A stretch of 64,000 nt of DNA from Betaproteobacteria bacterium (GTDB lineage Bacteria; Pseudomonadota; Gammaproteobacteria; Burkholderiales; SG8-41): assembly GCA_016192825.1 (NCBI GenBank), contig JACPTK010000004.1, positions 2,905 through 66,904 on the forward strand, in the 5' to 3' direction. Shown here one piece after another: positions 778-52,348 of this stretch. Both the position numbers and the translations under genes were made by a program. Numbering within the stretch: position 1 is the stretch's first letter; every line of letters starts with the position of its first letter. Under the pieces are notes generated by a model that saw only the letters and a program-made list of their open reading frames with translations, was not told the DNA's origin and searched no databases.

Positions 778-2271
778 TCAGCGTCGGTTTAGCAGTATGC
801 GTGCCGCTTCAACGGTCTCGGATGCGGTAAGTCCAACAGGGCCATCGCCGCCAGCTACTGCTTGATCCGCAGCGGCGCCGTGCAAATAGACACCCGCCAG
901 CAGGGCCGTCTTCGGCTCCGCGCCCTGCGCCAGCAAGGCAGCGATGAGTCCCGTGAGCACGTCGCCCTGGCCGGCGCTCGCCATGCCGGGATTGCCAGAA
1001 GTATTGATGTTCCAAGTCCCATCGGGAGACGCGCAGATACTGCCGGCGCCTTTGAGGACTACCAGGCTGTTGAACGTTTCGGCAAGCCGGGTTGCGGCGC
1101 CCACGCGATCGGCCTGGATTTCACGCGTAGTCGTGCCGAGCAGCCGGGCCGCCTCGGCGGGGTGGGGCGTCAGTAGCTTCGGACCCGCGCGCTTCCCGAC
1201 CAGGGCCGCGAGGTGCTTGTCCATGGCAACGAGATTGAGCGCGTCGGCGTCGAGCACGAGCGGCAGCGGCGACTCCAGCGCCCATCCCAGAAAGTACGCG
1301 GCATCGGGCATCTGCCCGAGCCCGGGGCCGACGGCCAGGCAGGAGAGGTGGCCGAGCTTGAGTACTTCGTCGGCGCGGCGCAGCATCAGCTCGGGCTGCT
1401 CCGGATCGAAGAGTGGCGCGTCGCGCGCAAGCAACCCGACATAGACCCGTCCCGTTCCCAGTTTCAGCGCTGCTCGCGCGGCGAGCAGCGCTGCGCCGAC
1501 CATGCCGTAGTCGCCGCCGATGATGCCGACGCTGCCGTAGTCGCCCTTGTGCGTATTGCGCTTGCGTGACTTCAGCGCTGCCGACAGCACCTCACGCCCG
1601 ATCACGAAGCCCCGGGCCGGGCGCAGCGCCTGAGTGTCCAGCTCGAGCGCGCGCAAGTGGATCTCGCCGCAGTAATCGGGCCCGTCGAGCGTGAGCAGGC
1701 CCGGCTTCAGCGCAATGAACGTGACCGTATAGTTCGCGCGCACTGCGCAGCCCATTACGCGGCCGGTGTCGGACTGCAGCCCGCTCGGGACATCGATGGC
1801 GAGGACCGGCGCGCCCAGCCCATTGATCGCGGCTATCCATTCCGCATAGGGGCCGGTCACCTCGCGTTCAAGGCCGATGCCAAAGACGCCGTCCACCACC
1901 AGCCCCCAGTGCCGCGAAGCGGGCAGGGAGGGGGTAATCGTGCCGCCGGCTTTGCGCCATGCGCTCAATGCGGCCTTTGCGTCCGCGGACAGCTTCTTTT
2001 CCTCGCCGGCGAAGACCACCGTGACCTTGAAGTACCATTTCTTGAGATGGCGGGCGACCACGAAGGCATCGCCGCCATTGTTCCCGGGTCCGGCAAGGAT
2101 CAGGACGGGTTTTCCGGTACCGCCCGATACCTCGCGCGCGACCTCGGCGGCCGCCAGTCCCGCCCGCTCCATGAGGTGCGGCGGGTTCGGAGCGGCCGCG
2201 ACGGCAGCTTCCATGGCACGGACGTCGGCGGCGAGGTAAACCGGCGTGTTGTGCGGAAATGCAGCGGTCAT
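778..2271 (-). CDS. nnr: Bifunctional NAD(P)H-hydrate repair enzyme (epimerase / ADP-dependent dehydratase)
   Basis: N-terminal YjeF_N-like region (LAGPGNNGGDAFVVARHL) and a C-terminal carbohydrate-kinase-like region (VLKGAGS.., GNPGMASAGQGDVLTG). The ORF runs to 2319, but the ATG at 2271 (MTAAFPHNTPVY) is the more plausible start. Confidence 0.85.
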   Translation of the reverse strand: MTAAFPHNTPVYLAADVRAMEAAVAAAPNPPHLMERAGLAAAEVAREVSGGTGKPVLILAGPGNNGGDAFVVARHLKKWYFKVTVVFAGEEKKLSADAKAALSAWRKAGGTITPSLPASRHWGLVVDGVFGIGLEREVTGPYAEWIAAINGLGAPVLAIDVPSGLQSDTGRVMGCAVRANYTVTFIALKPGLLTLDGPDYCGEIHLRALELDTQALRPARGFVIGREVLSAALKSRKRNTHKGDYGSVGIIGGDYGMVGAALLAARAALKLGTGRVYVGLLARDAPLFDPEQPELMLRRADEVLKLGHLSCLAVGPGLGQMPDAAYFLGWALESPLPLVLDADALNLVAMDKHLAALVGKRAGPKLLTPHPAEAARLLGTTTREIQADRVGAATRLAETFNSLVVLKGAGSICASPDGTWNINTSGNPGMASAGQGDVLTGLIAALLAQGAEPKTALLAGVYLHGAAADQAVAGGDGPVGLTASETVEAARILLNRR

Positions 2272-6267: not shown

Positions 6268-6379
6268 GGATGAGGGATGAGGGATGAGGGATGAGGGATG
6301 AGGGATGAGGGATGAGGGATGCGGGATGAGGGATGAGGGATGCGGGATGAGGGATGAGGGATGAGGGATGAGGGATGAC
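6268..6379 (+). repeat. Tandem heptamer array (GGATGAG) x16
   Basis: Counted directly: 16 contiguous 7-nt units. Units 8 and 11 are GGATGCG and the last unit is GGATGAC. The array starts 10 nt after the purL stop. Confidence 0.97.
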
Positions 6380-6390
6380 CCCCTCCAGCA

Positions 6391-6425
6391 GAAACGGCGC
6401 ACCCAGGTGCGCCGTTTCTTATTTG
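6391..6425 (+). terminator. Rho-independent terminator of purL
   Basis: 12-bp perfect stem GAAACGGCGCAC / GTGCGCCGTTTC with a 4-nt loop, followed by a T-rich tail (CTTATTTG). Confidence 0.7.
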
Positions 6426-6466
6426 TGACGCGTCACCAGTCACGAGTCACCAGTCACCAGTCACGC
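6425..6466. repeat. Tandem heptamer array GTCACCA/GTCACGA (5 units) preceded by palindromic GTGACGC
   Basis: Units are GTCACCA, GTCACGA, GTCACCA, GTCACCA, GTCACGC at 6432-6466. The array abuts the stop codon of the minus-strand PPIase gene. Confidence 0.92.
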
Positions 6467-27244: not shown

Positions 27245-27275
27245 GGTAATGGGTAATGGGTAATGAGTAATGAGC
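27245..27275 (+). repeat. Heptamer array GGTAATG x3, AGTAATG, AGCATCA (left arm of an inverted pair)
   Basis: Read directly. The reverse-complement array lies at 27663-27690. Confidence 0.92.
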
Positions 27276-27287
27276 ATCAAAACCCGG

Positions 27288-27665
27288 TTAGGACCGGACT
27301 GCCTTGTGAAGCCCCGTTACCAATCTGGAGACTTGATTTACAACATTGAAAATTGGATCGTTGCTATTGATGTAGCCCAGATCACTGGCGATAAGCAACT
27401 GTGTCTCCAGTTCGCTCAGCGAGCCTCGTGCCACGTTCAAGAACTGAGCGAACTCCCTGTTTCCTGTGCGCGCGGCACCCTCTGCAATATTGCTGGGAAT
27501 TGAGACTGCGGCGCGACGCATCTGCGAGACCAATCCAAACATCTCTTCCCTGGGAAATTTCTGTGTTAGTAAATAGACGTCCTTGACCAAAGCTCTGGAT
27601 ACCTTCCAGGCCTCCAGCTTGTGGTGGCCCCTTCCAGCACTTTCTGGTTGTCGTTCAGCGCCCAT
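27288..27665 (-). CDS. Four-helix-bundle protein (23S rRNA intervening-sequence protein / S23p family, Avd-like)
   Basis: About 125 aa. Family signature: ..KLEAWK..L....Y.LT..FP..E.FGL.SQMRRAAVSIPSNIAEG..R....EF.QFL..A.GSL.ELETQL. G+C is visibly lower than in the neighbouring genes. The gene is bracketed by inverted heptamer arrays. Confidence 0.9.
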   Translation of the reverse strand: MGAERQPESAGRGHHKLEAWKVSRALVKDVYLLTQKFPREEMFGLVSQMRRAAVSIPSNIAEGAARTGNREFAQFLNVARGSLSELETQLLIASDLGYINSNDPIFNVVNQVSRLVTGLHKAVRS

Positions 27666-27690
27666 CACTCATTACCCATTACTCATTACC
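27663..27690 (+). repeat. Heptamer array CATCACT, CATTACC, CATTACT, CATTACC (right arm, reverse complement of GGTAATG)
   Basis: Read directly. It contains the start of the four-helix-bundle gene and the last codons plus the stop of E1alpha. Confidence 0.92.
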
Positions 27691-28743
27691 CAGTGCAGCG
27701 GCCCGCTGGCGCGCGAGTGCTGCGGGCAACTGCGCGTAGAGATGGTCGAACATCTGCGCTGCGGCCGGAGGCGGCGTGTCGAGGTAGGCCTGCGCCGCGG
27801 CCTGCACCTGCGCGTTGCATTCCCTGAGCAGCGCGTCCTCCTTCGACTTGTCCCAGGCGCCGGATTCCATGAGGTGGGCGCGCAGCCGCACAAGGGGCTC
27901 GAGCTTCCATGCTTCCGCCAACTCGTCCGGGCTGCGGTAGCGCGAGGCGTCGTCGGCCGTGGTGTGGTCGGCGAGCCGGTAGGCAAGGGCCTCGATCAGC
28001 GTGGGGCCGCCGCCGGCGCGGGCTTTCGCGAGCGCCTGCTCCATGGCGTGGCGCACGGCGATGACATCGTTGCCGTCCACCTGCAGGCCTTCGATGCCGG
28101 CGGCGATGGCCTTCTGGGCGAGCGTGTGCGCCGCGGTCTGCTTCGCCCGCGGCACCGAGATCGCCCACTGATTGTTGGCGACGACGAAGACGAGGGGCAG
28201 CTTCCAGACGCCGGCGGCATTGAGACCCTCGTAGAAATCGCCCTTGGAGGTTGCGCCGTCGCCCAGCGCGCACACCGCCACGCGCGGCTCCCGCCGCAGC
28301 TTCATGGCGTAGGCGACTCCGACCGCGTGTGTTGCGTGCGCGGCGATGGTGATGCAAACAGGGAAGTCCCGGCGAGGGCCGGCATAATCGCTTCCGCGTT
28401 CGTCCCCGCCCCAATAGAGAAACAGCTCCTTGAGCGTCACGCCGCGCATCAGCTGCGCGCCGTTCTCGCGGTAGGTCACGAGCAGGACATCGTCCCTCGC
28501 CATCGCGGAACCGACCCCGGCTTCGATCGCCTCGTTGCCGAGCATCGAGGCGAAAGTACCGAGCTGTCCGGTGCGCTGCAGCGCGATCGCCTTGGCGTCA
28601 TAGGCGCGCATCAGCGCCATCCAGCGGTAGAGGGAGACGAGTATCCGGGGATCATGCGCGAAGCCCGGCAGGGCCTGCAGCGCCTTGCCGTGGGGATCGA
28701 GGAACTGTAAGTACCGGACCTCGAATTTGGCGGTGATATTCAA
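27679..28743 (-). CDS. 2-oxoacid dehydrogenase E1 component alpha subunit (TPP-dependent)
   Basis: 354 aa with a TPP motif region (GDGATSKGDFYEGLNAAGVWKLPLVFVVANNQWAIS). The C-terminal ..GNE-stop is encoded by the heptamer array. Confidence 0.9.
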   Translation of the reverse strand: MNITAKFEVRYLQFLDPHGKALQALPGFAHDPRILVSLYRWMALMRAYDAKAIALQRTGQLGTFASMLGNEAIEAGVGSAMARDDVLLVTYRENGAQLMRGVTLKELFLYWGGDERGSDYAGPRRDFPVCITIAAHATHAVGVAYAMKLRREPRVAVCALGDGATSKGDFYEGLNAAGVWKLPLVFVVANNQWAISVPRAKQTAAHTLAQKAIAAGIEGLQVDGNDVIAVRHAMEQALAKARAGGGPTLIEALAYRLADHTTADDASRYRSPDELAEAWKLEPLVRLRAHLMESGAWDKSKEDALLRECNAQVQAAAQAYLDTPPPAAAQMFDHLYAQLPAALARQRAAALGNE

Positions 28744-28891
28744 GCCGGGCCCCCGGAAGTGACCATTGGCCGAATTCTACCTTCCCGGCCCGCATTCCTG
28801 CTGCCCGGTTACGCGGACGAGGGGCGGCAGCGATGCCGCGCGGCTTTGTGGGACAATGCCCGCCATCAATTCACGCATTTCAGGGTCGGAA

Positions 28892-29995
28892 ATGAATCTC
28901 GGTTTCTTCACGATGCCGATGCACCCGCCGGGGCGAAACTATACGCAGACGCTCCGGGAGGATCGCGAGGCGGTGCTGCTGGCGGACCGTCTGGGATATT
29001 GCGAGGCCTTCATCGGCGAGCACATCACCGATGTGTGCGAGACCATCCCGTCGTGCCTGACGTTTATCGCGAGCGTCGCCCACGACACCCGGCAGATCCG
29101 GCTCGGCAGCGGCACCGTCAACCTGCCCAACAACCACCCGGTCCAGGTGGCCGCGCACGTTGCGATGGTGGATCACATGCTGGAGGGGCGTTTCATTTTC
29201 GGCATCGGACCGGGCGGGCTGCGCTCCGACATGGAGGTGTGCGGAAACCTGGACGCCGATCGCAACGCGATGTTCGTCGAATGCATCGACCAGATCCTCG
29301 CGATCTGGGCGGGCGATGCGCCGTACAACCTGAAGGGACGCTACTGGAACATCTCCACCGAGCGCACGCTCATCCGCGAGGCGGGACAGGGCGTGATCCT
29401 GAAGCCGTTCCAGAAGCCGCATCCCCCCATCGTGGTGACCGTCATCGCACCGCACTCGAAGGGGCTGGTCGCGGCGGCGCAGCGCGGCTGGCGACCGATT
29501 TCCGCCAATTTCCTGCAACCCCGTTGGGCGGCGACGCACTGGCCCATGTATCGGCAGGGTCGCGAGCTTGCCGGTCAACGCGCCGATCCACGGGATTGGC
29601 GCGTTTGCAAGAGCATCTTCGTGGCCGACGACGACGTCGCCGCGCGCCGTTACGCTACAAGCGCGGACGGGCCGTACGGATTCTATTACTGGAACCTGCT
29701 GACCAAGCGCAGGGGCCATGGCAACGTGGACATCTTCAAGCACGATCTGGGCGTTCCGGACGCCGCGGTGACCGTGGACTACCTGCTCGACCGGCTGGTG
29801 ATCTGCGGCGGCGTCGCGAGCGTGGTGGACCAGCTGCTCGCGTTCCGCGAAACGGTGGGGGATTTCGGCACGCTGCTCTACTGCGGCCACGACTGGGCCG
29901 ATCCGAAGCTCGCGCGCCGCTCGATGGAGCTGATGGCGGAGAAGGTGATGCCCGCAGTCAACGCGGCGCTTGGCCCTGCGTCATGCGCCGCTTGA
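28892..29995 (+). CDS. Luciferase-like (LLM class) flavin-dependent monooxygenase
   Basis: About 367 aa from ATG 28892 (MNLGFFTMPMHPPGR..). It shows an LLM pattern (IGEH.., LGSGTVNLPNNHP). The track ORF starts earlier, at 28766. Confidence 0.82.
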   Translation: MNLGFFTMPMHPPGRNYTQTLREDREAVLLADRLGYCEAFIGEHITDVCETIPSCLTFIASVAHDTRQIRLGSGTVNLPNNHPVQVAAHVAMVDHMLEGRFIFGIGPGGLRSDMEVCGNLDADRNAMFVECIDQILAIWAGDAPYNLKGRYWNISTERTLIREAGQGVILKPFQKPHPPIVVTVIAPHSKGLVAAAQRGWRPISANFLQPRWAATHWPMYRQGRELAGQRADPRDWRVCKSIFVADDDVAARRYATSADGPYGFYYWNLLTKRRGHGNVDIFKHDLGVPDAAVTVDYLLDRLVICGGVASVVDQLLAFRETVGDFGTLLYCGHDWADPKLARRSMELMAEKVMPAVNAALGPASCAA

Positions 29996-30023
29996 GTGAT
30001 GAGAGATGAGTGACGGGTGACGG
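29993..30023 (+). repeat. Short heptamer array TGAGTGA, TGAGAGA, TGAGTGA, CGGGTGA
   Basis: Four units; the first TGA is the LLM gene stop codon. There is no clear inverted partner. Confidence 0.6.
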
Positions 30024-30055
30024 AAAACAAAACGCCCCGCGTGGTTCTCGCGCGG
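30024..30055 (-). terminator. Weak candidate terminator of aconitase 2 (possibly bidirectional)
   Basis: Short GC stem CCGCG / CGCGG with a 9-nt loop. On the minus strand it is followed by GGCGTTTTGTTTT. Confidence 0.4.
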
Positions 30056-33359: not shown

Positions 33360-33414
33360 TCACCAGTCACGAGTCACGAGTCACGAGTCACGAGTCACGA
33401 GTCACGAGTCACGA
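33360..33414. repeat. Tandem heptamer array: TCACCA + (GTCACGA) x7 perfect
   Basis: Counted directly: seven identical units at 33366-33414, between the prpD stop and the thioredoxin-fold gene start. Confidence 0.97.
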
Positions 33415-33420
33415 GCAGTA

Positions 33421-36124: not shown

Positions 36125-36166
36125 GTCACCAGTCACCAGTCACCAGTCACGAGTCACGAGTCACGG
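36125..36166. repeat. Tandem heptamer array (GTCACCA) x3 (GTCACGA) x2 GTCACGG
   Basis: Six contiguous units between the mdh stop and the prpC start. Confidence 0.96.
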
Positions 36167-38132: not shown

Positions 38133-39899
38133 ATGGCACTGCCGGTTCGCACTTTTGACGCGGTGATCGTCGGCGGCGGCGGGTCGGGCATGCGCGCCGC
38201 GCTGGAGCTCGCGCGCGCCGACCTCAAGGTCGCCGTGCTCTCCAAGGTCTTTCCGACGCGCTCGCACACGGTGGCGGCGCAGGGCGGCGTGGCGGCCTCG
38301 CTCGGCAACATCGACGAGGACAACTGGCACTGGCACATGTACGACACCATCAAGGGGTCGGACTACCTGGGCGACCAGGATGCGATCGAGTTCATGTGCC
38401 GCAAGGCGAACGAAGTGGTCTACGAGCTGGAGCACTTCGGCATGCCGTTCGACCGGCTCGCCGGCGGGAAGATCTACCAGCGCCCTTTCGGCGGGCACAT
38501 GCGGGAATACGGCAAATCCCCGGTGCCGCGCGCCTGCGCCGCGGCCGATCGCACGGGGCATGCCTTGCTGCACACGCTCTACCAGGCGAATCTCAAGGCG
38601 CGCACGCAATTTTTCGTGGAGTGGATGGCGCTCGACCTCATTCGCGCCCAGGATGGCACGGTGCTGGGCGTCACGGCGCTCGAGATGGAGACCGGCGAAG
38701 TGATGGTGCTGCAGGCGAAGGCGACGGTGTTCGCCACCGGCGGCGCGGGGCGCATCTTCGCAGCCAGCACCAACGCCTTCATCAACACGGGCGACGGGCT
38801 GGGCATGGCGGCGCGCGCGGGGATCCCGCTCCAGGACCTGGAGTTCTGGCAGTTTCACCCGACCGGAGTGGCGGGCGCGGGCGTATTGATCACGGAAGGC
38901 GTGCGCGGGGAGGGCGGCTACCTGCTGAACAAGAACGGCGAGCGCTTCATGGAGCGCTACGCGCCGAACGCCAAGGACCTCGCGAGCCGCGACGTCGTCT
39001 CGCGCGCGATGGCGACCGAAATCAAGGAGGGGCGCGGCGCCGGCAAGGACGGCGACTGCATCCTGCTCAAGCTCGACCATCTCGGCGAGGAAGTGATCAG
39101 CAAGCGGCTGCCGGGCATACGGGAGATCGCCAAGACGTTCGCCAACGTGGATCCGGTCAAGGACCCGATCCCGGTGGTGCCGACCTGTCATTACCAGATG
39201 GGCGGCATTCCCACCAATTACCGCGGGCAAGTGGTGGTTCCCGCCAACGGCAATCCCGAAACGGTGGTGCCCGGTTTCTACGCCGCGGGCGAGTGCGCCT
39301 GCGTCTCGGTCCACGGCGCCAACCGCCTTGGGTGCAATTCGTTGCTCGATCTGCTCGTGTTCGGCAAGTCCGCGGGCGAGACCGTGATCCGCGACCTCCG
39401 GAGCGAAGGCAAGTCGCACCGCAGCCTGCCCGGGGACGCGAGCGATCTCGCGCTCTCGCGCCTCGCGCGCCTCGATGGCCAGAAGAGCGGCGAGCGCGTG
39501 GCCGATGTTGGGGCCGACATGCGGCGCGTCATGCAGCTGCACTGCGGCGTGTTCCGGTTTCCGGACCTGCTGACCGAAGGCGTCAGGAAGATCAAGGAGG
39601 TGGCCGAGCGCGCCGGCCGCACCGAGATCACCGACAAGAGCCGGACTTTCAACACGGCAAGGGTGGAGGCGCTCGAGCTCGACAACCTCGTCGAGACCGC
39701 TGTCGCTTCCCTGGTGTCGGCGGACGCGCGCAAGGAAAGCCGTGGCTCGCACGACCGCGCCGATTTCCACCAGCGCGACGACGTGAACTGGATGAAGCAC
39801 ACGCTGTGGTACAAGCAGGGCAGCCGGCTGGAGTACAAGCCGGTTCACCGCAAGCCGCTCACCGTCGAGCCCTTCGAGCCCAAGGCCCGCGTCTACTGA
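38133..39899 (+). CDS. sdhA: Succinate dehydrogenase flavoprotein subunit
   Basis: 588 aa. Motifs: [46 protein letters not shown]. Confidence 0.97.
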
Positions 39900-39901
39900 C
39901 G

Positions 39902-40008
39902 GTGAATCGTGATTGGTGATTAGTGAGCGGACCAAACCGAAGAGCGACGCATGATGGACTTCCGTCTTCCCGCTTGTCACCAATCACTAAACACCACTCA
40001 CTAATCAC
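39902..40008. repeat. Inverted pair of heptamer arrays in the sdhA|sdhB spacer (GTGAATC GTGATTG GTGATTA GTGAGCG ... TTGTCAC CAATCAC TAAACAC CACTCAC TAATCAC)
   Basis: Left arm 39902-39929 and right arm 39974-40008. There is a 12-nt perfect complement: GTGATTAGTGAG (39916-39927) with CTCACTAATCAC (39997-40008). Confidence 0.9.
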
Positions 40009-40026
40009 GCAGTTGCGGAGCAGCCG

Positions 40027-40722
40027 ATGAGATTCTCGATCTACCGCTACAACCCCGAGGCCGACGAGAAGCCGCGCCTGCAGAGCTACGATATCGCGCT
40101 CGAGCCGACCGACCGCATGCTGCTCGACGCGCTGGTGCGCATCAAGGCGCGCGACGACACGCTGTCGTTCCGGCGCTCCTGCCGCGAGGGCGTGTGCGGG
40201 TCGGACGCCATGAACATCAACGGCAAGAACGGGCTCGCGTGCGTCACGCGGATCGCCGACCTGAAGGAGCCGGTGGAGATCCGGCCGCTGCCGGGGCTGC
40301 CGGTGGTGCGCGACCTGATCGTGGACATGTCGCAGTTCTTCAAGCAGTACCACTCGGTCAAGCCCTATCTCGTCAACAACGAGCCGCCGCCCGAGAAGGA
40401 GCGGCTGCAGTCCCCGGAGGATCGCGAGGAGCTGGATGGCCTTTATGAATGCATCCTGTGCGCCTGCTGCTCGACCTCCTGCCCGTCGTTCTGGTGGAAC
40501 CCGGACAAGTTCGTCGGTCCGGCCGGCCTGCTGCAGGCGTACCGCTTCATCGCCGACACGCGCGACCAGGCCACCAACGAGCGGCTGGACGATCTGGAAG
40601 ATCCGTACCGCCTGTTCCGTTGCCACTCCATCATGAACTGCGTGGAGGTGTGCCCGAAAGGGCTCAACCCGACGCGGGCGATCGGCAAGATCAAGGATCT
40701 GCTGGTCAAGCGCACCGTCTAG
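40027..40722 (+). CDS. sdhB: Succinate dehydrogenase iron-sulfur subunit
   Basis: 231 aa with three Cys clusters ([39 protein letters not shown]). Confidence 0.97.
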
Positions 40723-40753
40723 GAATTCGTCGGTGCCCTGGCTCGACGAATTT
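40723..40753 (+). other. Hairpin directly after the sdhB stop (possible attenuator/terminator)
   Basis: Stem GAATTCGTCG / CGACGAATT(T) of 9-10 bp with an 11-nt loop; only a short T tail follows. Confidence 0.35.
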
Positions 40754-40842
40754 CATATTGGGCTAATTTGAAATCGGCAATATGGCGTGGTTGCTGCAGA
40801 TGATGGAATTCAGTAGCAGTGCCGAAATGCCGTTATATGCAA

Positions 40843-40874
40843 GGAATTTGCCGGACGATAGGCCGGCAAATTCC
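40843..40874. repeat. REP-like hairpin GGAATTTGCCGG-N8-CCGGCAAATTCC
   Basis: 12-bp perfect stem. A related copy (GGAGTTTGCCGG..CCGACAAACTCC) lies at 48414-48445. Confidence 0.6.
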
Positions 40875-40886
40875 TAGTTCGAGCGA

Positions 40887-41188: not shown

Positions 41189-42487
41189 ATGGCAGAGAAA
41201 CTGGCAACCCTGAGCTTCAGTGACGGCACGCCGTCGGTCGATTTCCCCGTGCTGGGCGGCAGCGAAGGCCCGGAAGTGATCGACGTGCGGGCACTCTACG
41301 GCAAGACCGGCAAGTTCACCTACGACCCCGGCTTCATGTCCACGGCCAGCTGCCGCTCCACCATCACCTATATCGACGGCGACAAGGGGATACTGCAATA
41401 CCGCGGCTACCCGATCGAGCAGATCGCCGAGCATTGCACGTTCCTCGAGGTGGCCTACCTGATCCTCAACGGCGAGCTGCCGAACAAGAAGCAGCTCGAG
41501 GAATTCGTGACTACCGTCACCCACCACACCATGGTGCACGAGCAGCTCGGGCGCTTTTACTCGGGTTTCCGGCGCGACGCGCACCCGATGGCGGTGCTGT
41601 GCGGGGTGGTGGGCGCCCTGTCCGCCTTCTACCACGACTCGATCGATATTCACGACGAGCGCAGCCGGGAGATCGCGGCGTTCCGGCTGATCGCGAAGCT
41701 GCCGACCATCACGGCGATGACCTACAAATACAGCGCCGGACAGCCGTTCATGTACCCGAAGAACGCGCTGTCCTACGTGGACAACTTCCTCTACATGATG
41801 TTCGGCACGCCGTGCGAGGAGTACAAGCCCAACCGGACCCTGTCGCGGGCGATGGACCGCATCCTGATCCTTCACGCCGACCACGAGCAGAACGCGTCGA
41901 CCTCCACGGTGCGGCTCGCCGGCTCGACCGGCGCCAACCCGTTCGCGTGCATCTCCGCCGGCATCGCGAGCCTGTGGGGCCCGGCCCACGGCGGCGCCAA
42001 CGAGGCGGTGCTCAAGATGCTCGGCGAAATCGGCGACGTGAAGAACATTCCCGCGTTCATCAAGCGCGTCAAGGACAAGGACGGCCACGCCATGCTGATG
42101 GGCTTCGGCCACCGCGTCTACAAGAACTACGACCCGCGCGCCAAGCTCATCCAGAAGACCTGCCACGAGGTGCTGGAGGAGCTCGACCTCAAGGACGACA
42201 AGCTGTTCAAGCTCGCGATCGCGCTGGAGAAGGTGGCGCTCGAGGACGAGTACTTCGTCAAGCGCAAGCTCTATCCCAACGTGGATTTCTATTCCGGCAT
42301 CGTCTACAAGGCGCTCGGCATTCCGGTCGCGATGTTCACCGCGATATTCGCGCTCGCCCGCACGGTGGGTTGGATCGCCCAGTGGAAGGAGCTGATCAGC
42401 GACCCGGATCAGAAGATCGGGCGCCCGCGGCAGCTCTTCACGGGCGCGGCGCGCCGCGACTTCGTGCCCATGAACAAGCGAAAGTGA
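41189..42487 (+). CDS. gltA: Citrate synthase (type II, hexameric type)
   Basis: 432 aa from ATG 41189 ([13 protein letters not shown]..). Motifs: [30 protein letters not shown]. The track ORF starts earlier, at 41063. Confidence 0.95.
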
Positions 42488-42571
42488 TTCGTGAGTCGTG
42501 AATCGTGATTCGAGGGCGTATCGTGTGCGGACCATAGCGGGCCGAATCACGAATCACCCATCACGATTCAC
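42484..42571. repeat. Inverted pair of heptamer arrays in the gltA|sucA spacer (GTGATTC GTGAGTC GTGAATC GTGATTC ... GAATCAC GAATCAC CCATCAC GATTCAC)
   Basis: Left arm 42484-42511, whose first unit contains the gltA TGA. Right arm 42544-42571. The centre is 32 nt. Confidence 0.92.
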
Positions 42572-42596
42572 GCTCTTGGGTTTCTGAGGCGCAGCC

Positions 42597-45449
42597 ATGA
42601 TGAAGCAGATGCTCGGCAGCTCCCATCTCTTCGGCGCGAACGCGCCGTTCATCGAGGCGCTCTACGACGCCTGGCTCAGGGACCCGGCCTCGGTCGAGCC
42701 GCGCTGGCGCGATTACTTCGAGGAATTGCAGCGTCTCGACCAGGGCGCCGCGGATGTGTCGCACTACGAGGTCCAGGAGCGCTTCGCGCAGCTCGCCCGG
42801 GCGCCGCGCGCGGGCGCGCCGACGGTCGTGATCAACCGCCCGCAGCTCGGCGAGAAGCAATACGCCGTGCTCCATCTCATCACGGCCCATCGCATCCTGG
42901 GCAGCCGCCACGCCGACATCGATCCCCTCCGGCGCCGCGAAAAGCCGGACATTCCCGAGCTCGACCCCGCATTCTACGGGCTGAGCGATGCAGACATGGA
43001 GGCGGCGTTCAACACCGGGACGCTGGTCGGGCCGCGGGAGATGAAGCTCAGCGACATCCTGCAGTTCCTCAAGGACACCTATTGCCGCAGCGTCGGCGTC
43101 GAATACATGCACGTCACCGACATGGCGCAGAAGCGATGGGTGCAGGAGCGTCTGGAGCGCACCCGCTCGACGCCTTCCTACGACGCCGAGTACCGCAAGC
43201 ACATCCTGGAGCGGCTGACCGCCGCCGAGACGCTGGAAAAATACCTGCACACCAAATACGTCGGCCAGAAGCGCTTCTCGCTGGAGGGCGGCGAGTCCCT
43301 GATTCCGCAGCTCGACCACCTGCTGCAGAGCGCGGGGAAAGCGGGCGTGCAGGAACTGGTGATCGGCATGGCCCACCGCGGCCGCATCAACGTCCTCGTC
43401 AATACCCTGGGCAAGATGCCCAAGGATCTTTTCGCGGAGTTCGAAGGCAAGCACGATGACTCGCTGCTTGCCGGCGACGTCAAGTACCACCAGGGCTTCT
43501 CCGCCAACATCATGTCGCCGGGCGGGCCGATGCACGTCTCCCTGGCGTTCAACCCCTCGCACCTCGAGATCGTCAACCCGGTGGTCGAGGGCTCGGTGCG
43601 CGCGCGCCAGCACCGCCGGCGGGATCTAAGGGGCGACCAGGTCCTGCCGGTGCTCATCCACGGCGATGCCGCGTTCGCGGGGCAAGGCGTGAACATGGAA
43701 ACCTTCGAGCTGGCGCAGACGCGCGGCTACGGCACCAGCGGCACGCTGCACCTGGTGGTGAACAACCAGATCGGCTTCACCTGCTCCGACCTGCGCGACG
43801 CCCGCTCGACGCTCTACTGCACCGACATCGCCAAGATGCTCGAAGTGCCGATCTTTCACGTGAACGCCGACGATCCGGAAGCGGTGTGCCTGGTGACGGA
43901 GATCGCGCTGGAATACCGCATGAAGTTCCACAAGGACGTGGTGGTGGACCTGGTGTGCTACCGGCGCCTCGGGCACAACGAGCAGGACGAGCCGATGGTC
44001 ACCCAGCCGCTGATGTACAAGACCATCGCCCGGCTCCCCACCACGCGCAAGCTGTACGCCGACAGGCTCGAGCGCGAAGGCGCGATCCAGCCGGGCGGGG
44101 GCGACGCCATGGTCGTGAACTTCCGCGCCGCGCTCGATGGCGGGCACCACACCAACAAGACCATCCTGTCCAACTACAAGCCCCCGTTCGAGGTCGACTG
44201 GGGCAAGTACCGGGGCGGCAAGTGGAACGAGCACGACGACACGCGGCTCCCGATCGAGACGCTGAAGCGGCTGGGGGAGCGCATCACCACCGTGCCCGAG
44301 AACTTCAAGCTGCATTCCTCGGTGCAGCGGATCATCGAGAACCGGCGCCTGATGGCGCAGGGCAAGCTCCCGCTCGACTGGGGCATGGCCGAGCATCTGG
44401 CCTTCGCCACGCTGCTCGAGGAGGGCTACTCGGTCCGGCTCTCGGGCCAGGACAGCGGGCGCGGAACCTTCTTTCACCGCCATGCCGTGCTGCACGACCA
44501 GAACCGGGAGAAATGGGACCAGGGCACCTACGTTCCGCTGCAGCACCTGAGCGACAAGCAGGGCGATTTCGTGGTGATCGATTCGGTGCTGTCCGAGGAG
44601 GCCGTGATGGGCTTCGAGTTCGGCTACTCGACCTCGGCGCCCAACGAGCTGGTGATCTGGGAAGGACAATTCGGCGATTTCGCGAACGGCGCCCAGGTGG
44701 TCATCGACCAGTTCATCGCCTCGGGCGAGGCCAAGTGGGGCCGGCTGTGCGGGCTGGTGCTGATGCTGCCCCACGGCTACGAGGGGCAGGGGCCGGAGCA
44801 CTCGTCCGCCCGCATCGAGCGCTACATGCAGTTGTGCGCCGACTACAACATGCAGGTCTGCGTCCCGGCAACCCCGGTGCAGCTCTATTACCTGCTGCGG
44901 CGGCAGATGATCCGGCCGTACCGCAAGCCGCTCATCCTGTTCACGCCGAAGAGCCTGCTGCGCCACAAGGAATCGGTCTCGCCGCTGGAGGAATTCGCCA
45001 CCGACAAGTTCAAGCCGGTGAACGAGGACTGGGAATCCAAGGACATCAATCCCGACGCAGTGAAGCGCGTCGTCTTCTGCAGCGGCAAGGTCTATTACGA
45101 TCTGCGCGTCGAACGCAAGGCGCGCGGCCTGAAGGACCTGCCGCTCGCGCGCATCGCGCAGCTCTACCCGTTCGCGCACGACGACTTCCATGCGCAGATC
45201 GAGCGCTACAAAACGGCGAGCGAGATCGTGTGGTGCCAGGAGGAGCCGCGCAACCAGGGCGCGTGGCACCGCATCCAGCACTACCTGGAGCGCCACCTGC
45301 TGCCGCACCAGAAACTGATCTACGCCGGCCGCGACTCCTCGGCCGCGCCGGCCGCGGGGTACAAGTCGCTGCACGACCGTCAGCAGAAGGAGCTCGTGGA
45401 TCTTGCGCTGTCCGTGGGTGTCGTCTCGCGCGCCGACGGGGTGCGGTGA
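42597..45449 (+). CDS. sucA: 2-oxoglutarate dehydrogenase E1 component
   Basis: 950 aa with characteristic blocks (RILGSRHADIDPL, GMAHRGRINVL, HGDAAFAGQGV, LPHGYEGQGPEHSSAR). Confidence 0.97.
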   Translation: MMKQMLGSSHLFGANAPFIEALYDAWLRDPASVEPRWRDYFEELQRLDQGAADVSHYEVQERFAQLARAPRAGAPTVVINRPQLGEKQYAVLHLITAHRILGSRHADIDPLRRREKPDIPELDPAFYGLSDADMEAAFNTGTLVGPREMKLSDILQFLKDTYCRSVGVEYMHVTDMAQKRWVQERLERTRSTPSYDAEYRKHILERLTAAETLEKYLHTKYVGQKRFSLEGGESLIPQLDHLLQSAGKAGVQELVIGMAHRGRINVLVNTLGKMPKDLFAEFEGKHDDSLLAGDVKYHQGFSANIMSPGGPMHVSLAFNPSHLEIVNPVVEGSVRARQHRRRDLRGDQVLPVLIHGDAAFAGQGVNMETFELAQTRGYGTSGTLHLVVNNQIGFTCSDLRDARSTLYCTDIAKMLEVPIFHVNADDPEAVCLVTEIALEYRMKFHKDVVVDLVCYRRLGHNEQDEPMVTQPLMYKTIARLPTTRKLYADRLEREGAIQPGGGDAMVVNFRAALDGGHHTNKTILSNYKPPFEVDWGKYRGGKWNEHDDTRLPIETLKRLGERITTVPENFKLHSSVQRIIENRRLMAQGKLPLDWGMAEHLAFATLLEEGYSVRLSGQDSGRGTFFHRHAVLHDQNREKWDQGTYVPLQHLSDKQGDFVVIDSVLSEEAVMGFEFGYSTSAPNELVIWEGQFGDFANGAQVVIDQFIASGEAKWGRLCGLVLMLPHGYEGQGPEHSSARIERYMQLCADYNMQVCVPATPVQLYYLLRRQMIRPYRKPLILFTPKSLLRHKESVSPLEEFATDKFKPVNEDWESKDINPDAVKRVVFCSGKVYYDLRVERKARGLKDLPLARIAQLYPFAHDDFHAQIERYKTASEIVWCQEEPRNQGAWHRIQHYLERHLLPHQKLIYAGRDSSAAPAAGYKSLHDRQQKELVDLALSVGVVSRADGVR

Positions 45450-45483
45450 GCGGCAATTCGCAGCCGCCGCTGCGAATTGCCGC
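45450..45483 (+). other. 15-bp perfect hairpin immediately after the sucA stop
   Basis: GCGGCAATTCGCAGC-CGCC-GCTGCGAATTGCCGC, followed by an A/T-rich sequence but no clean T-run. Confidence 0.5.
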
Positions 45484-45609
45484 TAATTGAAATTCTGAAA
45501 TGGATATAGGTGAGGTTGGCTGCGGGAACGTTTCCCGTCCTAGAATGAGGTGTCCAGGCGAGTTGGAAATGAACGTTGCACTGCCCCATTCAATCATGTT
45601 CTCTAGGTT

Positions 45610-45643
45610 AGGATTTTTTCGCGCGCCAGCGCGAAAAAATCCT
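45610..45643 (+). promoter_or_regulatory. 14-bp hairpin abutting the sucB Shine-Dalgarno
   Basis: AGGATTTTTTCGCG-N6-CGCGAAAAAATCCT. Its right arm ends 1 nt before GGAG (45644-45647). Confidence 0.4.
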
Positions 45644-45657
45644 GGAGCGGAGTGAGC

Positions 45658-46887: not shown

Positions 46888-46893
46888 AAGGGC

Positions 46894-46978
46894 GTGAATG
46901 GTGAGTGGTGAGTGGTGAATGGCAGAAACGGCCGGTTTCCGGGTTCAGCCCAATCACTACTCACCAATCACTATTCAC
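46894..46978. repeat. Inverted pair of heptamer arrays in the sucB|lpdA spacer (GTGAATG GTGAGTG GTGAGTG GTGAATG ... CAATCAC TACTCAC CAATCAC TATTCAC)
   Basis: Left arm 46894-46921 and right arm 46951-46978. The centre is 29 nt and contains a small GAAAC..GTTTC stem. Confidence 0.92.
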
Positions 46979-46989
46979 GCAGTTCAATC

Positions 46990-50867: not shown

Positions 50868-50950
50868 CAGCTTCCAGCTTCCAGCAACCAGCAGTCAGCC
50901 GAAACCGCAAACTGGAAGCTCTAAGCTGGCAGCTCGTAGCTGATAGCTGC
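50868..50950. repeat. Inverted pair of heptamer arrays with unit CAGCTTC (CAGCTTC x2, CAGCAAC, CAGCAGT, CAGCCGA ... GGAAGCT CTAAGCT GGCAGCT CGTAGCT GATAGCT)
   Basis: Left arm 50868-50902 and right arm 50914-50948, between convergent genes. Confidence 0.85.
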
Positions 50951-52320: not shown

Positions 52321-52348
52321 GTGACTGGTGACTGGTGATTGGTGGATT
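52321..52348 (+). repeat. Heptamer array GTGACTG x2, GTGATTG, GTGGATT
   Basis: Four units. It is the reverse-orientation, phase-shifted relative of the GTCACCA arrays. Confidence 0.8.

Follow-up and report, generated by a model that had tools for sequence, protein, structure and literature searches.

Intergenic heptamer repeats (STRR, GGGAATC, TAACTGA) have been catalogued for decades, to our knowledge without a mechanism emerging, and STRR repeats are said (Vioque, 1997) to occur inside the RNase P RNA gene. The REP/BIME elements of E. coli and Pseudomonas are dispersed intergenic palindromes, situated inside operons and at 3' ends, that serve as mRNA decay barriers; the partner gene of REP, RAYT, encodes a Y1 transposase and is flanked by inverted copies of the repeat. 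Gene-less intervening sequences (IVSs) of ~ 100 nt exist in bacteria other than Coxiella. The S23p or four-helix-bundle proteins form a large family for which we know of no function and no enzymatic activity.

Among the heptamer repeats, the GGGAATC family of Xanthomonas counts 70–75 inverted pairs in convergent orientation per genome and favours arrays of about four units; its sites are intergenic and mostly transcribed, lie near stop or start codons, mostly between aligned ORFs and rarely between divergent ORFs, and the type of inverted pair is conserved between species (Rehm et al. 2015, PMC4692102). That study makes no mention of RNase III, intervening sequences, S23p or four-helix-bundle genes (PMC4692102). 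In cyanobacteria, the hupS-hupL spacer contains STRR heptamers able to fold into a hairpin, for which a role in transcript stability or translational coupling was proposed (PMC2670836). In marine Beggiatoaceae, TAACTGA repeats occur between genes in sets of 2–6 units, near start codons and with stop triplets inside them; they have been suggested to be bound post-transcriptionally (MacGregor 2015, PMC4679880). Finally, the 23S rRNA IVS of Coxiella burnetii (428 nt) contains an S23p ORF and inverted repeats forming a 28-bp stem; its 5' part holds a degenerate unit together with tandem GACAGAT heptamers, two or three of them according to strain. RNase III excises the IVS with a cut where the first repeat begins, an outcome obtained both in vitro and by RACE (Warrier et al. 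2016, PMC4990558). An older idea, as cited there, regards the IVS ORF as the mobility component of a mobile intervening sequence (PMC4990558).

Here we describe a stretch of 64,000 nucleotides from a betaproteobacterium (hereafter the window; G+C 65.7%, non-coding share ~ 11%), in which the spacer between sdhA and sdhB is filled by two opposed heptamer arrays. This element is a GTGAnnn, betaproteobacterial case of intergenic heptamer inverted pairs, a class already described though not explained.

Anatomy and predicted fold of the sdhA-sdhB spacer

As sdhA, which had sdhC upstream of it, ended at 39899 and sdhB started at 40027, the spacer between them (39900-40026) was 127 nt long. Its 5' arm began 2 nt past the sdhA stop, with CG intervening and a TGA in each unit, and the complete order was TGA, CG, four heptamers, 44 nt, five heptamers, GCAGTTGCGGAGCAGCCG and the ATG of sdhB (Table 1). 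The first unit of the 3' arm, TTGTCAC, was degenerate. A 12-nt perfect complement (39916-39927 with 39997-40008) joined the arms and was extended by the repeat finder to 15 nt at 93%, while alternative registers, shifted by 7 nt, gave 25–32 nt at 72–84% complementarity. The 44-nt centre held no ORF of the S23p family (PF05635) and was not kept in the orthologous element of relative L162 when the two were aligned. A remnant of a four-helix-bundle ORF was considered for this centre and rejected, the segment being too short and its sole likeness being ATGATGG compared with the start of the cargo gene described below.

Most of this anatomy had been proposed in a sequence-only reading of the same DNA, whose gene boundaries and heptamers agreed with the sequence and the profile hits, whose 12-nt complement was recovered by the repeat finder, and whose description of the spacer as carrying no gene stood for the S23p family. 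It had also taken the spacer to be unusually long, which was borne out by a comparison of spacer lengths: the median sdhA-sdhB gap over 70 related loci was ~ 35 nt, with many gaps from -1 to 40 nt. The stable stem that it described was likewise obtained by RNA structure prediction, with 21 predicted pairs and a folding energy of -45.3 kcal/mol, compared with -31.1 ± 3.1 kcal/mol for 200 dinucleotide shuffles (z = -4.6; 0/200 as good). The spacer pattern is far beyond chance. In the predicted fold only G40017 and G40018 of the sdhB Shine-Dalgarno sequence GGAG (40017-40020) were base-paired, and the AUG was free.

Table 1 Features of the window discussed in the text
Feature	Coordinates	Strand	Evidence or remarks
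(GGATGAG)x16 array, 14-bp perfect hairpin (6390-6419) and opposite-strand GTGACTG-type array (6432-6464)	6268-6464	.	Convergent spacer
Gene-bearing element, GGTAATG-type arms (27245-27275 and 27660-27690)	27245-27692	-	Arms 31 nt, 90% complementary
Cargo gene, 126 aa, four-helix-bundle (S23p)	27288-27668	-	PF05635 23S_rRNA_IVP, 1.9e-36; TIGR02436 'four helix bundle protein', 2.4e-34
Lone heptamer array, beginning at stop codon of + gene 28766-29995	29992-30025	+	Period scan
Lone (GTGACTC)x8 array, just past stop of prpD-like gene	33360-33415	-	Fold z = +0.8
Lone GTGACTG/GTGACTC array, just past mdh stop	36125-36165	-	Fold z about 0
sdhA, succinate dehydrogenase flavoprotein	38133-39899	+	TIGR01816, E = 6e-282; stop TGA 39897-39899
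Spacer 5' arm, four heptamers GTGAATC GTGATTG GTGATTA GTGAGCG	39902-39929	+	Sequence, repeat finder
Main stem, 5' strand	39907-39927	+	RNA fold; 21 bp predicted
Spacer centre (loop), 44 nt, with small internal hairpin	39930-39973	+	RNA fold
Spacer 3' arm, five heptamers TTGTCAC CAATCAC TAAACAC CACTCAC TAATCAC	39974-40008	+	Complement of GTGAnnn family
Main stem, 3' strand, bulge at 40009 (pairs 39997-40008, 40010-40018)	39997-40018	+	RNA fold
sdhB, iron-sulfur subunit	40027-40722	+	NF004616, E = 3.5e-114
gltA-sucA element, GTGATTC-type inverted pair (arms at 42484 and 42543)	42484-42572	+	29-nt arms, 83% complementary; fold z = -3.4
sucB-lpd element, GTGAATG/GTGAGTG inverted pair (arms at 46892 and 46950)	46892-46980	+	31-nt arms, 87% complementary; fold z = -9.1
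CAGCTTC-type heptamer inverted pair, convergent spacer (arms at 50868 and 50912)	50868-50942	.	Fold z = -2.3
Lone GTGACTG array	52321-52344	+	Repeat finder

A stable stem directly after the sdhA stop codon could in principle be an intrinsic terminator or attenuator, lowering transcription of sdhB relative to sdhA. We consider this very improbable, however, since the stem is followed by CACGCAGTTGCGGAG instead of a T-run, a terminator and promoter scan of the + strand of the spacer returned no site, and SdhB is needed 1:1 with SdhA while a promoter-like site ahead of sdhB is absent from that strand. A G-quadruplex, as proposed for Xanthomonas and Nostoc heptamers, would be suggested by membership of the same repeat class as the GGGAATC and GGGGAYT arrays; but direct reading of both strands of the two arms found no GGG, and most units in this lineage (GTGAnTn, CTCGTTn, AGTGTTT) cannot make G-tetrads. 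For the sdh element this structure is refuted by the sequence itself and retains practically no probability, and as GTGAnnn units lack the ability altogether, it cannot be the general explanation of the heptamer class.

Rfam gave nothing at gathering thresholds across the window, and within 39700-40200 only a chance-level match (E = 9.6). A REP/BIME identity was rejected on the grounds that the arms are tandem arrays varying by locus, with no shared centre on reading the sequences. The element was also rejected as a MITE: the centres of the three pairs of the TCA cluster were unrelated on inspection, and orthologues keep arms, not centres. Judged by eye, no target-site duplication was evident at the element.

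Heptamer arrays in the window and at the same junctions in relatives

When lags 4–12 were scanned across the window, 13 regions with a period of 7 (at least 76% self-match at lag 7) were detected, 12 of them mostly intergenic; lags 4–6 and 8–12 produced 0–3 regions each, none of which was intergenic. Tandem Repeats Finder recovered about a dozen period-7 arrays, and GTGANNNGTGANNNGTGA occurred 24 times against 0.00 expected. Within the arrays the period was strictly 7, the GTGA core was conserved, positions 5–7 were free, and arms usually counted 4–5 units. Arrays were found in 7/36 co-oriented, 3/7 convergent and 0/7 divergent spacers, which assigns them to transcribed spacers, not to promoters.

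Five inverted pairs were identified: those at E1-alpha/E1-beta (27245/27660), sdhA/sdhB, gltA/sucA and sucB/lpd, and one in a convergent spacer. For each of them the fold was significant (z between -2.3 and -9.1). No significant fold was obtained for the two lone arrays examined in this way (33360-33415 and 36125-36165), so a hairpin cannot explain the whole family, and the two arrays within 6268-6464 were not mutually complementary. The sequence-only reading had noted that the sdh spacer shares its architecture with the cargo-bearing element at 27245-27690, and here the two did match, the cargo being a PF05635/TIGR02436 protein. A regulatory role of the stem specific to sdh did not hold up: the spacer carries one copy of a genome-wide family that is also found at gltA-sucA, sucB-lpd and other spacers, and it is patchy among close relatives.

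Arrays were strongly polarised with respect to stop codons. Across the elements, 107 stop triplets were counted in 1348 nt of 5' arms and 43 in 1554 nt of 3' arms (~ 3x), the 5' arm being the richer in 24 elements compared with 5 (p = 4e-5); the preferred palindrome type has a 5' arm rich in stops (GTGA, TGA, TAA). For the lone arrays of the window, the stop-containing strand was, by reading, the sense strand of the gene immediately upstream in 7/7 cases, and these arrays either started 0–10 nt past the upstream stop or provided it. Stops located inside arrays were the TAA of E1-alpha, the TGA of gltA (which is the TGA of the first unit of the gltA-sucA array) and the TGA of the gene at 28766-29995, all three in phase with the array; the stops of sdhA and sucB were out of phase. 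Since 3 does not divide 7, heptamer arrays put stops in all three frames.

Several origins of this polarity may be considered. Arrays might have been seeded by stop-codon duplication, with which the phase agrees in only some cases; other candidate causes, besides an origin at stops, are a filter against C-terminal extensions upon changes in copy number, and a role in translation. The core motifs GTGA, ATGA and TAATG double as overlapping stop-start motifs.

Identity of the window's SdhB protein to its counterparts in GTDB species genomes (mostly MAGs, Burkholderiales/Betaproteobacteria) did not exceed 88%, and the best metagenome proteins reached 92%; an exact look-up returned no record. The top SdhB homologue (P0001, locus L161) turned out to be a distinct and longer SdhB-like gene, lying on a contig of 1 kb, and told nothing about the spacer. 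Gene order, with mdh pointing away from sdhCDAB-sdhE-gltA-sucA-sucB-lpd, was conserved in relatives. In ~ 12 lineages the sdhA-sdhB gap was 67–299 nt long and filled with tandem arrays, mostly inverted pairs, of differing units and sometimes periods: GGCGTGA in L001, GTGAAGGA (8-mer) in L003 and L026, GTGAGGG in L039, a 10-mer in L053, AAGTGAAC (8-mer) in L066 and CAGGnAT in L069 and L075. Among closer relatives, L162-165 had a gap of 118 nt with a GTGAATC/GAATCAC pair, while a CTCGTTn/nAACGAG pair occupied 75–82 nt in L166-170, L172 and L173, and the same type 123 nt in L171. Additionally, pairs with units of 7, 8, 10 or 14 nt were present in relatives at gltA-sucA, sucB-lpd, sucA-sucB, mdh-prpC and prpC-prpD. 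A tblastn search of 80 sdhB loci with the four-helix-bundle protein gave no match, so the gene-less pairs there do not sit beside such a gene.

The same junctions were repeatedly refilled with other units and periods (L001, L016 and L023; L162 and L166; L171-L173), and many close relatives had a short, element-free sdhA-sdhB spacer, for instance 11 nt in L002 and L005; presence and absence among close relatives indicate that the element is dispensable. In every pair one locus-specific unit was common to both arms, even where other loci of the genome differed, which shows that the two arms of a pair are coupled. Units varied widely between the loci of a single genome in L171 and L173. Between the window and L166, the arms at gltA-sucA were near-identical (the sole arm change seen was GTGAATC to GTGGATC) and the loop was far less conserved, 38% of sdhB synonymous sites differed, and the sdhA-sdhB units were entirely different. 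Judging by these alignments, evolution of the elements looks like stasis broken by wholesale replacement.

All 29 intercistronic pairs from the window and relatives (29/29) folded into long stems of 25–100 predicted pairs. Selection on the sense RNA should favour G-U pairs in the sense strand; their numbers were 117 in sense and 115 in antisense folds, and of the two folds the sense one was more stable in 16 pairs, the antisense one in 13 (Wilcoxon p = 0.25), so that the mRNA strand is not singled out. Mirrored unit order between arms showed no excess over permutation in 15 pairs (Stouffer z = 0.04). The latter result implies that complementarity comes from a shared unit family rather than base-by-base compensation, and a shared unit family allows the stem to form in several registers. 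Both tests that did not DISCRIMINATE, sense versus antisense and mirrored unit order, were thus null, and they are compatible with a neutral or selfish explanation at the level of DNA.

According to this explanation the elements would be purely neutral or selfish repeat DNA, whose RNA hairpin has no consequence visible to selection; arrays would arise by replication slippage beside stop codons, and the likeness of the arms by insertion of a ready-made palindrome or by template switching at quasi-palindromes. Apart from the missing strand asymmetry and the unmirrored unit order, it accommodates the patchy distribution among close relatives, the wholesale turnover of units at one junction, the unfolded lone arrays and the variation of heptamer copy number among Coxiella strains (PMC4990558). 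It does not readily account for gltA-sucA arms that stay near-identical, with a much less conserved loop, despite the synonymous divergence of sdhB, for the avoidance of divergent (promoter) spacers, or for the repeated occupation of the same junctions in separate lineages. On balance we regard it as possible but rather unlikely.

Four-helix-bundle genes enclosed by heptamer arrays

The gene-bearing element of the window sits between the E1-alpha and E1-beta genes, with the E1-alpha stop inside its array. Its cargo protein weakly resembles DGR Avd, and its closest solved structure is 2GSC, the XCC0516 protein of Xanthomonas campestris (1.2e-31). A cassette at the same E1-alpha/E1-beta site was found in L082, L083 and L103 with 82–84% nucleotide identity, and a cargo dN/dS of 0.05–0.12 indicates purifying selection. 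The GGTAATG arms of the window cassette are unlike the GTGAnnn arms of the gene-less copies, a mismatch that we count against the explanation preferred below.

Scanning metagenomes with the cargo protein yielded 80 loci of 42–98% identity. The best period was 7 in 124/140 flanks of four-helix-bundle genes (220–280 nt scanned on each side), compared with 109/592 control segments from the same contigs. Flanks were inverted-complementary (ungapped inverted-match score of at least 12) in 58/70 metagenome loci and in 3/70 mismatched controls; this score was used instead of RNAduplex flank energies, because the latter were very negative in all comparisons and hence uninformative. Cassettes in the metagenome loci ran from a stop codon through an array, the four-helix-bundle gene and a complementary array to the Shine-Dalgarno sequence and ATG of the next gene. 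Their units changed by lineage, and GTGATTC arms, like the family of the sdh spacer, were present in L117, L130 and L136.

Orthologues of XCC0516 in Xanthomonas lie between accB and accC with GGGAATC arrays on both sides, GGGAATC GGGAGTG GAGAATC GGGAATC upstream and ATTCCCC ATTCTCG ACTCCCT ATTCCC downstream, the latter ending at the accC ATG. Both arrays are members of the GGGAATC family that Rehm et al. 2015 described across the genome. In the literature searched, no link between genome-wide heptamer arrays and S23p or four-helix-bundle genes was found, the description of the Coxiella IVS excepted.

An association of this kind raises the question of whether the arrays are putative multivalent RNA or DNA sites for a repeat-recognising protein, acting other than through a hairpin. 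Such a protein might be a translation factor or the four-helix-bundle pentamer, and the effect might be translation re-initiation or coupling, or the element's own spread. Such recognition would fit the strict period of 7 with its conserved GTGA core, free positions 5–7 and usual 4–5 units per arm, as well as the stop polarity of the lone arrays (7/7) and 5' arms; the constrained four-helix-bundle gene is almost always enclosed by heptamer arrays, and binding partners have already been proposed for the heptamers of Beggiatoaceae and Nostoc. One sequence-specific protein, however, would not explain units that differ as widely within one genome as in L171 and L173, and the arms of pairs are predicted to be base-paired. 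We think this unlikely.

A broader and tentative proposal, doubtful but worth stating, is that period-7 inverted arrays and S23p genes make up one element system, like REPs and RAYT. The partner specific to the arrays would be the four-helix-bundle pentamer, with a part in spread, maintenance or protection; gene-less pairs would be non-autonomous copies, rRNA IVSs would be copies that landed in an rRNA helix, and the elements would persist in essential operons by being tolerated in the transcript or removed from it through RNase III. If true, it would give a common account of STRR, the Xanthomonas GGGAATC repeats, S23p proteins and rRNA fragmentation.

Proposed role of the spacer and comparison with known systems

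Starting from the anatomy, heptamer family, positional recurrence, arm coupling and four-helix-bundle gene link documented above, we give an even chance to the sdh spacer being a gene-less, IVS-like heptamer hairpin in the sdh mRNA, that is, a double-stranded stem serving as an RNase III site or decay barrier within a tolerated, semi-selfish insertion. The element of ~ 107 nt (39902-40008) is a copy of a dispersed intergenic family with two opposed heptamer arrays around a short centre; the gene-bearing form holds the S23p or four-helix-bundle gene, the Coxiella IVS is one instance of that form, and the window copies lie in mRNA spacers. The spacer would presumably be transcribed within the sdhCDAB(-sdhE-gltA-sucAB-lpd) message, whereupon its arms could zip into an imperfect double-stranded stem of at least 21 bp, with several registers 7 nt apart being available. 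This stem might be cut by RNase III, or it might at least block exonucleases; either way the polycistronic RNA would be split between sdhA and sdhB, with the sdhB ribosome-binding site largely free. The insertion is probably tolerated and semi-selfish rather than a device evolved for sdh, and a change in the SdhA:SdhB ratio, if there is one, would be a side effect.

A processing or stabilisation site at the spacer, as the sequence-only reading had suggested, is plausible by this comparison, and the idea gains indirect support because the Coxiella IVS shares the design and is cut by RNase III within its stem. Imperfect stems of this sort, 21 bp long here, are among the substrates that RNase III cuts, the step to the sdh element being one of analogy.

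Arrays and the four-helix-bundle gene occur together in the window, in relatives, in ~ 70 metagenome loci and in Xanthomonas, the gene lying between inverted arrays and usually in an intercistronic spacer of the operon for a multi-subunit enzyme; the sole experimentally studied case, the Coxiella IVS, is an RNase III substrate. This association of arrays with S23p genes across the window, metagenome loci, Xanthomonas and Coxiella is a by-product of the analysis, and the more valuable one. It leads to the proposal that IVS-like elements may live in mRNAs, and makes a vague class of repeats testable. Cutting at sdhA-sdhB, gltA-sucA and sucB-lpd could occur, and would then shape expression of the TCA-cycle operon.

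Compared with the systems introduced at the outset, the sdh spacer differs from the TAACTGA sets of Beggiatoaceae in being an inverted pair, as nearly all of those sets are direct (1/170 inverted). It resembles the hupS-hupL spacer in placing 7-bp tandem repeats with a potential hairpin between two subunit genes of one respiratory or redox enzyme; the units and the phylum are different, however, and the cyanobacterial study drew no link to four-helix-bundle genes. The position of RAYT between inverted REPs parallels that of the four-helix-bundle gene between heptamer arrays, although REPs are single palindromes of 20–40 nt with a family consensus and the window elements are tandem arrays. In an unsystematic look, no Y1 transposase (RAYT-type) gene was noticed in the window.

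With the IVSs of Coxiella and Leptospira the element shares inverted termini that form a long stem (21 bp with one bulge here, 28 bp there), tandem heptamers in the 5' terminus and a dispensable centre. The PF05635 cargo protein of IVSs is optional, being absent from the sdh spacer and present in the 27245-27692 element of the window. Classical IVSs lie in helix 9, 25 or 45 of 23S rRNA and are excised by RNase III, whereas the sdh element lies in an mRNA spacer, not inside a 16S/23S helix (the Rfam scan found no rRNA in the window), and its cleavage is proposed by analogy.

In distribution the elements resemble the Xanthomonas heptamers, for which the same placement in co-oriented and convergent but not divergent spacers has been reported. 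The sdh spacer has the at least three head-to-tail units and convergent second array of the Xanthomonas-Nostoc class, and the many copies typical of that class were seen within the 64-kb window alone (13 arrays, 12 intergenic). It departs from the Xanthomonas family in its GTGAnnn unit, which has no G-quadruplex ability, and in its betaproteobacterial host.

Insertions and inverted pairs at gene junctions

Junctions of the TCA-operon genes were found to vary among relatives. In one of them (locus L060, 8330-10000), sdhA and sdhB are separated by a 1668-nt insertion holding at least one ORF, and large insertions are therefore tolerated at this junction. In two other loci (L171 and L173) the repeat unit of the inverted pairs is 14 nt (GCGTCACTGATnnn, GCGAGACTGATnnn) or 10 nt long (ACGCAGATRA), so that a period of 7 is usual for this architecture, not obligatory.

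Coordinates of the features discussed
Feature	Location	Strand	Context
Four-helix-bundle (S23p, PF05635) gene cassette	window 27245-27692	-	inside 2-oxoacid dehydrogenase operon, E1-alpha/E1-beta
XCC0516-type four-helix-bundle gene	L174-L179 (Xanthomonas campestris, X. citri), ~1424-1872		between accB and accC
Inverted pairs with 14-nt or 10-nt units	L171 10314-10483; L173 2547-2692, 5546-5661		gltA/sucA, sucA/sucB spacers
Second-family elements	window 40719-40882, 45448-45650, 48411-~48610		
Second-family elements in relatives	L162 4198-4373, 8916-9137; L172 8694-8866		
(GGATGAG)x16 array, very long	window 6268-6464 region		3' of 1302-aa gene
Perfect 14-bp hairpin, T-rich tail	window 6390-6419		after (GGATGAG)x16 array
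GTGACTG array	window 6268-6464 region		after 14-bp hairpin; belongs to convergent gene

Besides the heptamer pairs, a second family of intergenic elements, ~160-220 nt long, was observed at the sdhB/sdhE and sucA/sucB junctions and between lpd and the next gene, at positions kept across relatives. Each element has a low-GC centre and, at either end, a perfect hairpin of ~32 nt (consensus TAGGAATTTGYCGG...CCGRCAAATTCCTA); the upstream TAG stop codon often falls inside the first hairpin. The elements had no match in Rfam.

Stop-triplet polarity

Across 29 intercistronic pairs from the window and its relatives (L001-L173), stop triplets were ~3 times commoner in 5' arms than in 3' arms (p = 4e-5). 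Lone arrays, which begin at the stop codon of the upstream gene or just 3' of it, always carried the stop-containing strand as the sense strand of that gene (window 6268, 6432, 29992, 33360, 36125 and 52321). With (GGATGAG)x16 on one side and GTGACTG on the other, the terminator-like hairpin at window 6390-6419 is flanked by two different heptamer families.

Cassettes with a four-helix-bundle gene

The GGTAATG array of the window cassette encodes the final E1-alpha codons and stop (GNE*), and dN/dS of the four-helix-bundle gene was 0.05-0.12. Its insertion between E1-alpha and E1-beta is shared by L082, L083 and L103. A further contig, L081, shares 97% identity with the window over the cassette; its upstream heptamer arm (2380-2450) is reduced to ~2 units preceded by two copies of the direct repeat GTGTCCAACTAACGCTGAAACTC, and upstream of this arm E1-alpha is replaced by unrelated DNA. 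This arrangement is due to an event at the array (rearrangement or insertion) or to a join made in metagenome assembly.

A cassette is likewise present in Xanthomonas, where the gene for the crystallised four-helix-bundle protein XCC0516 (PDB 2GSC) is bordered on both sides by inverted GGGAATC-type heptamer arrays, the 3' array ending exactly at the accC ATG.
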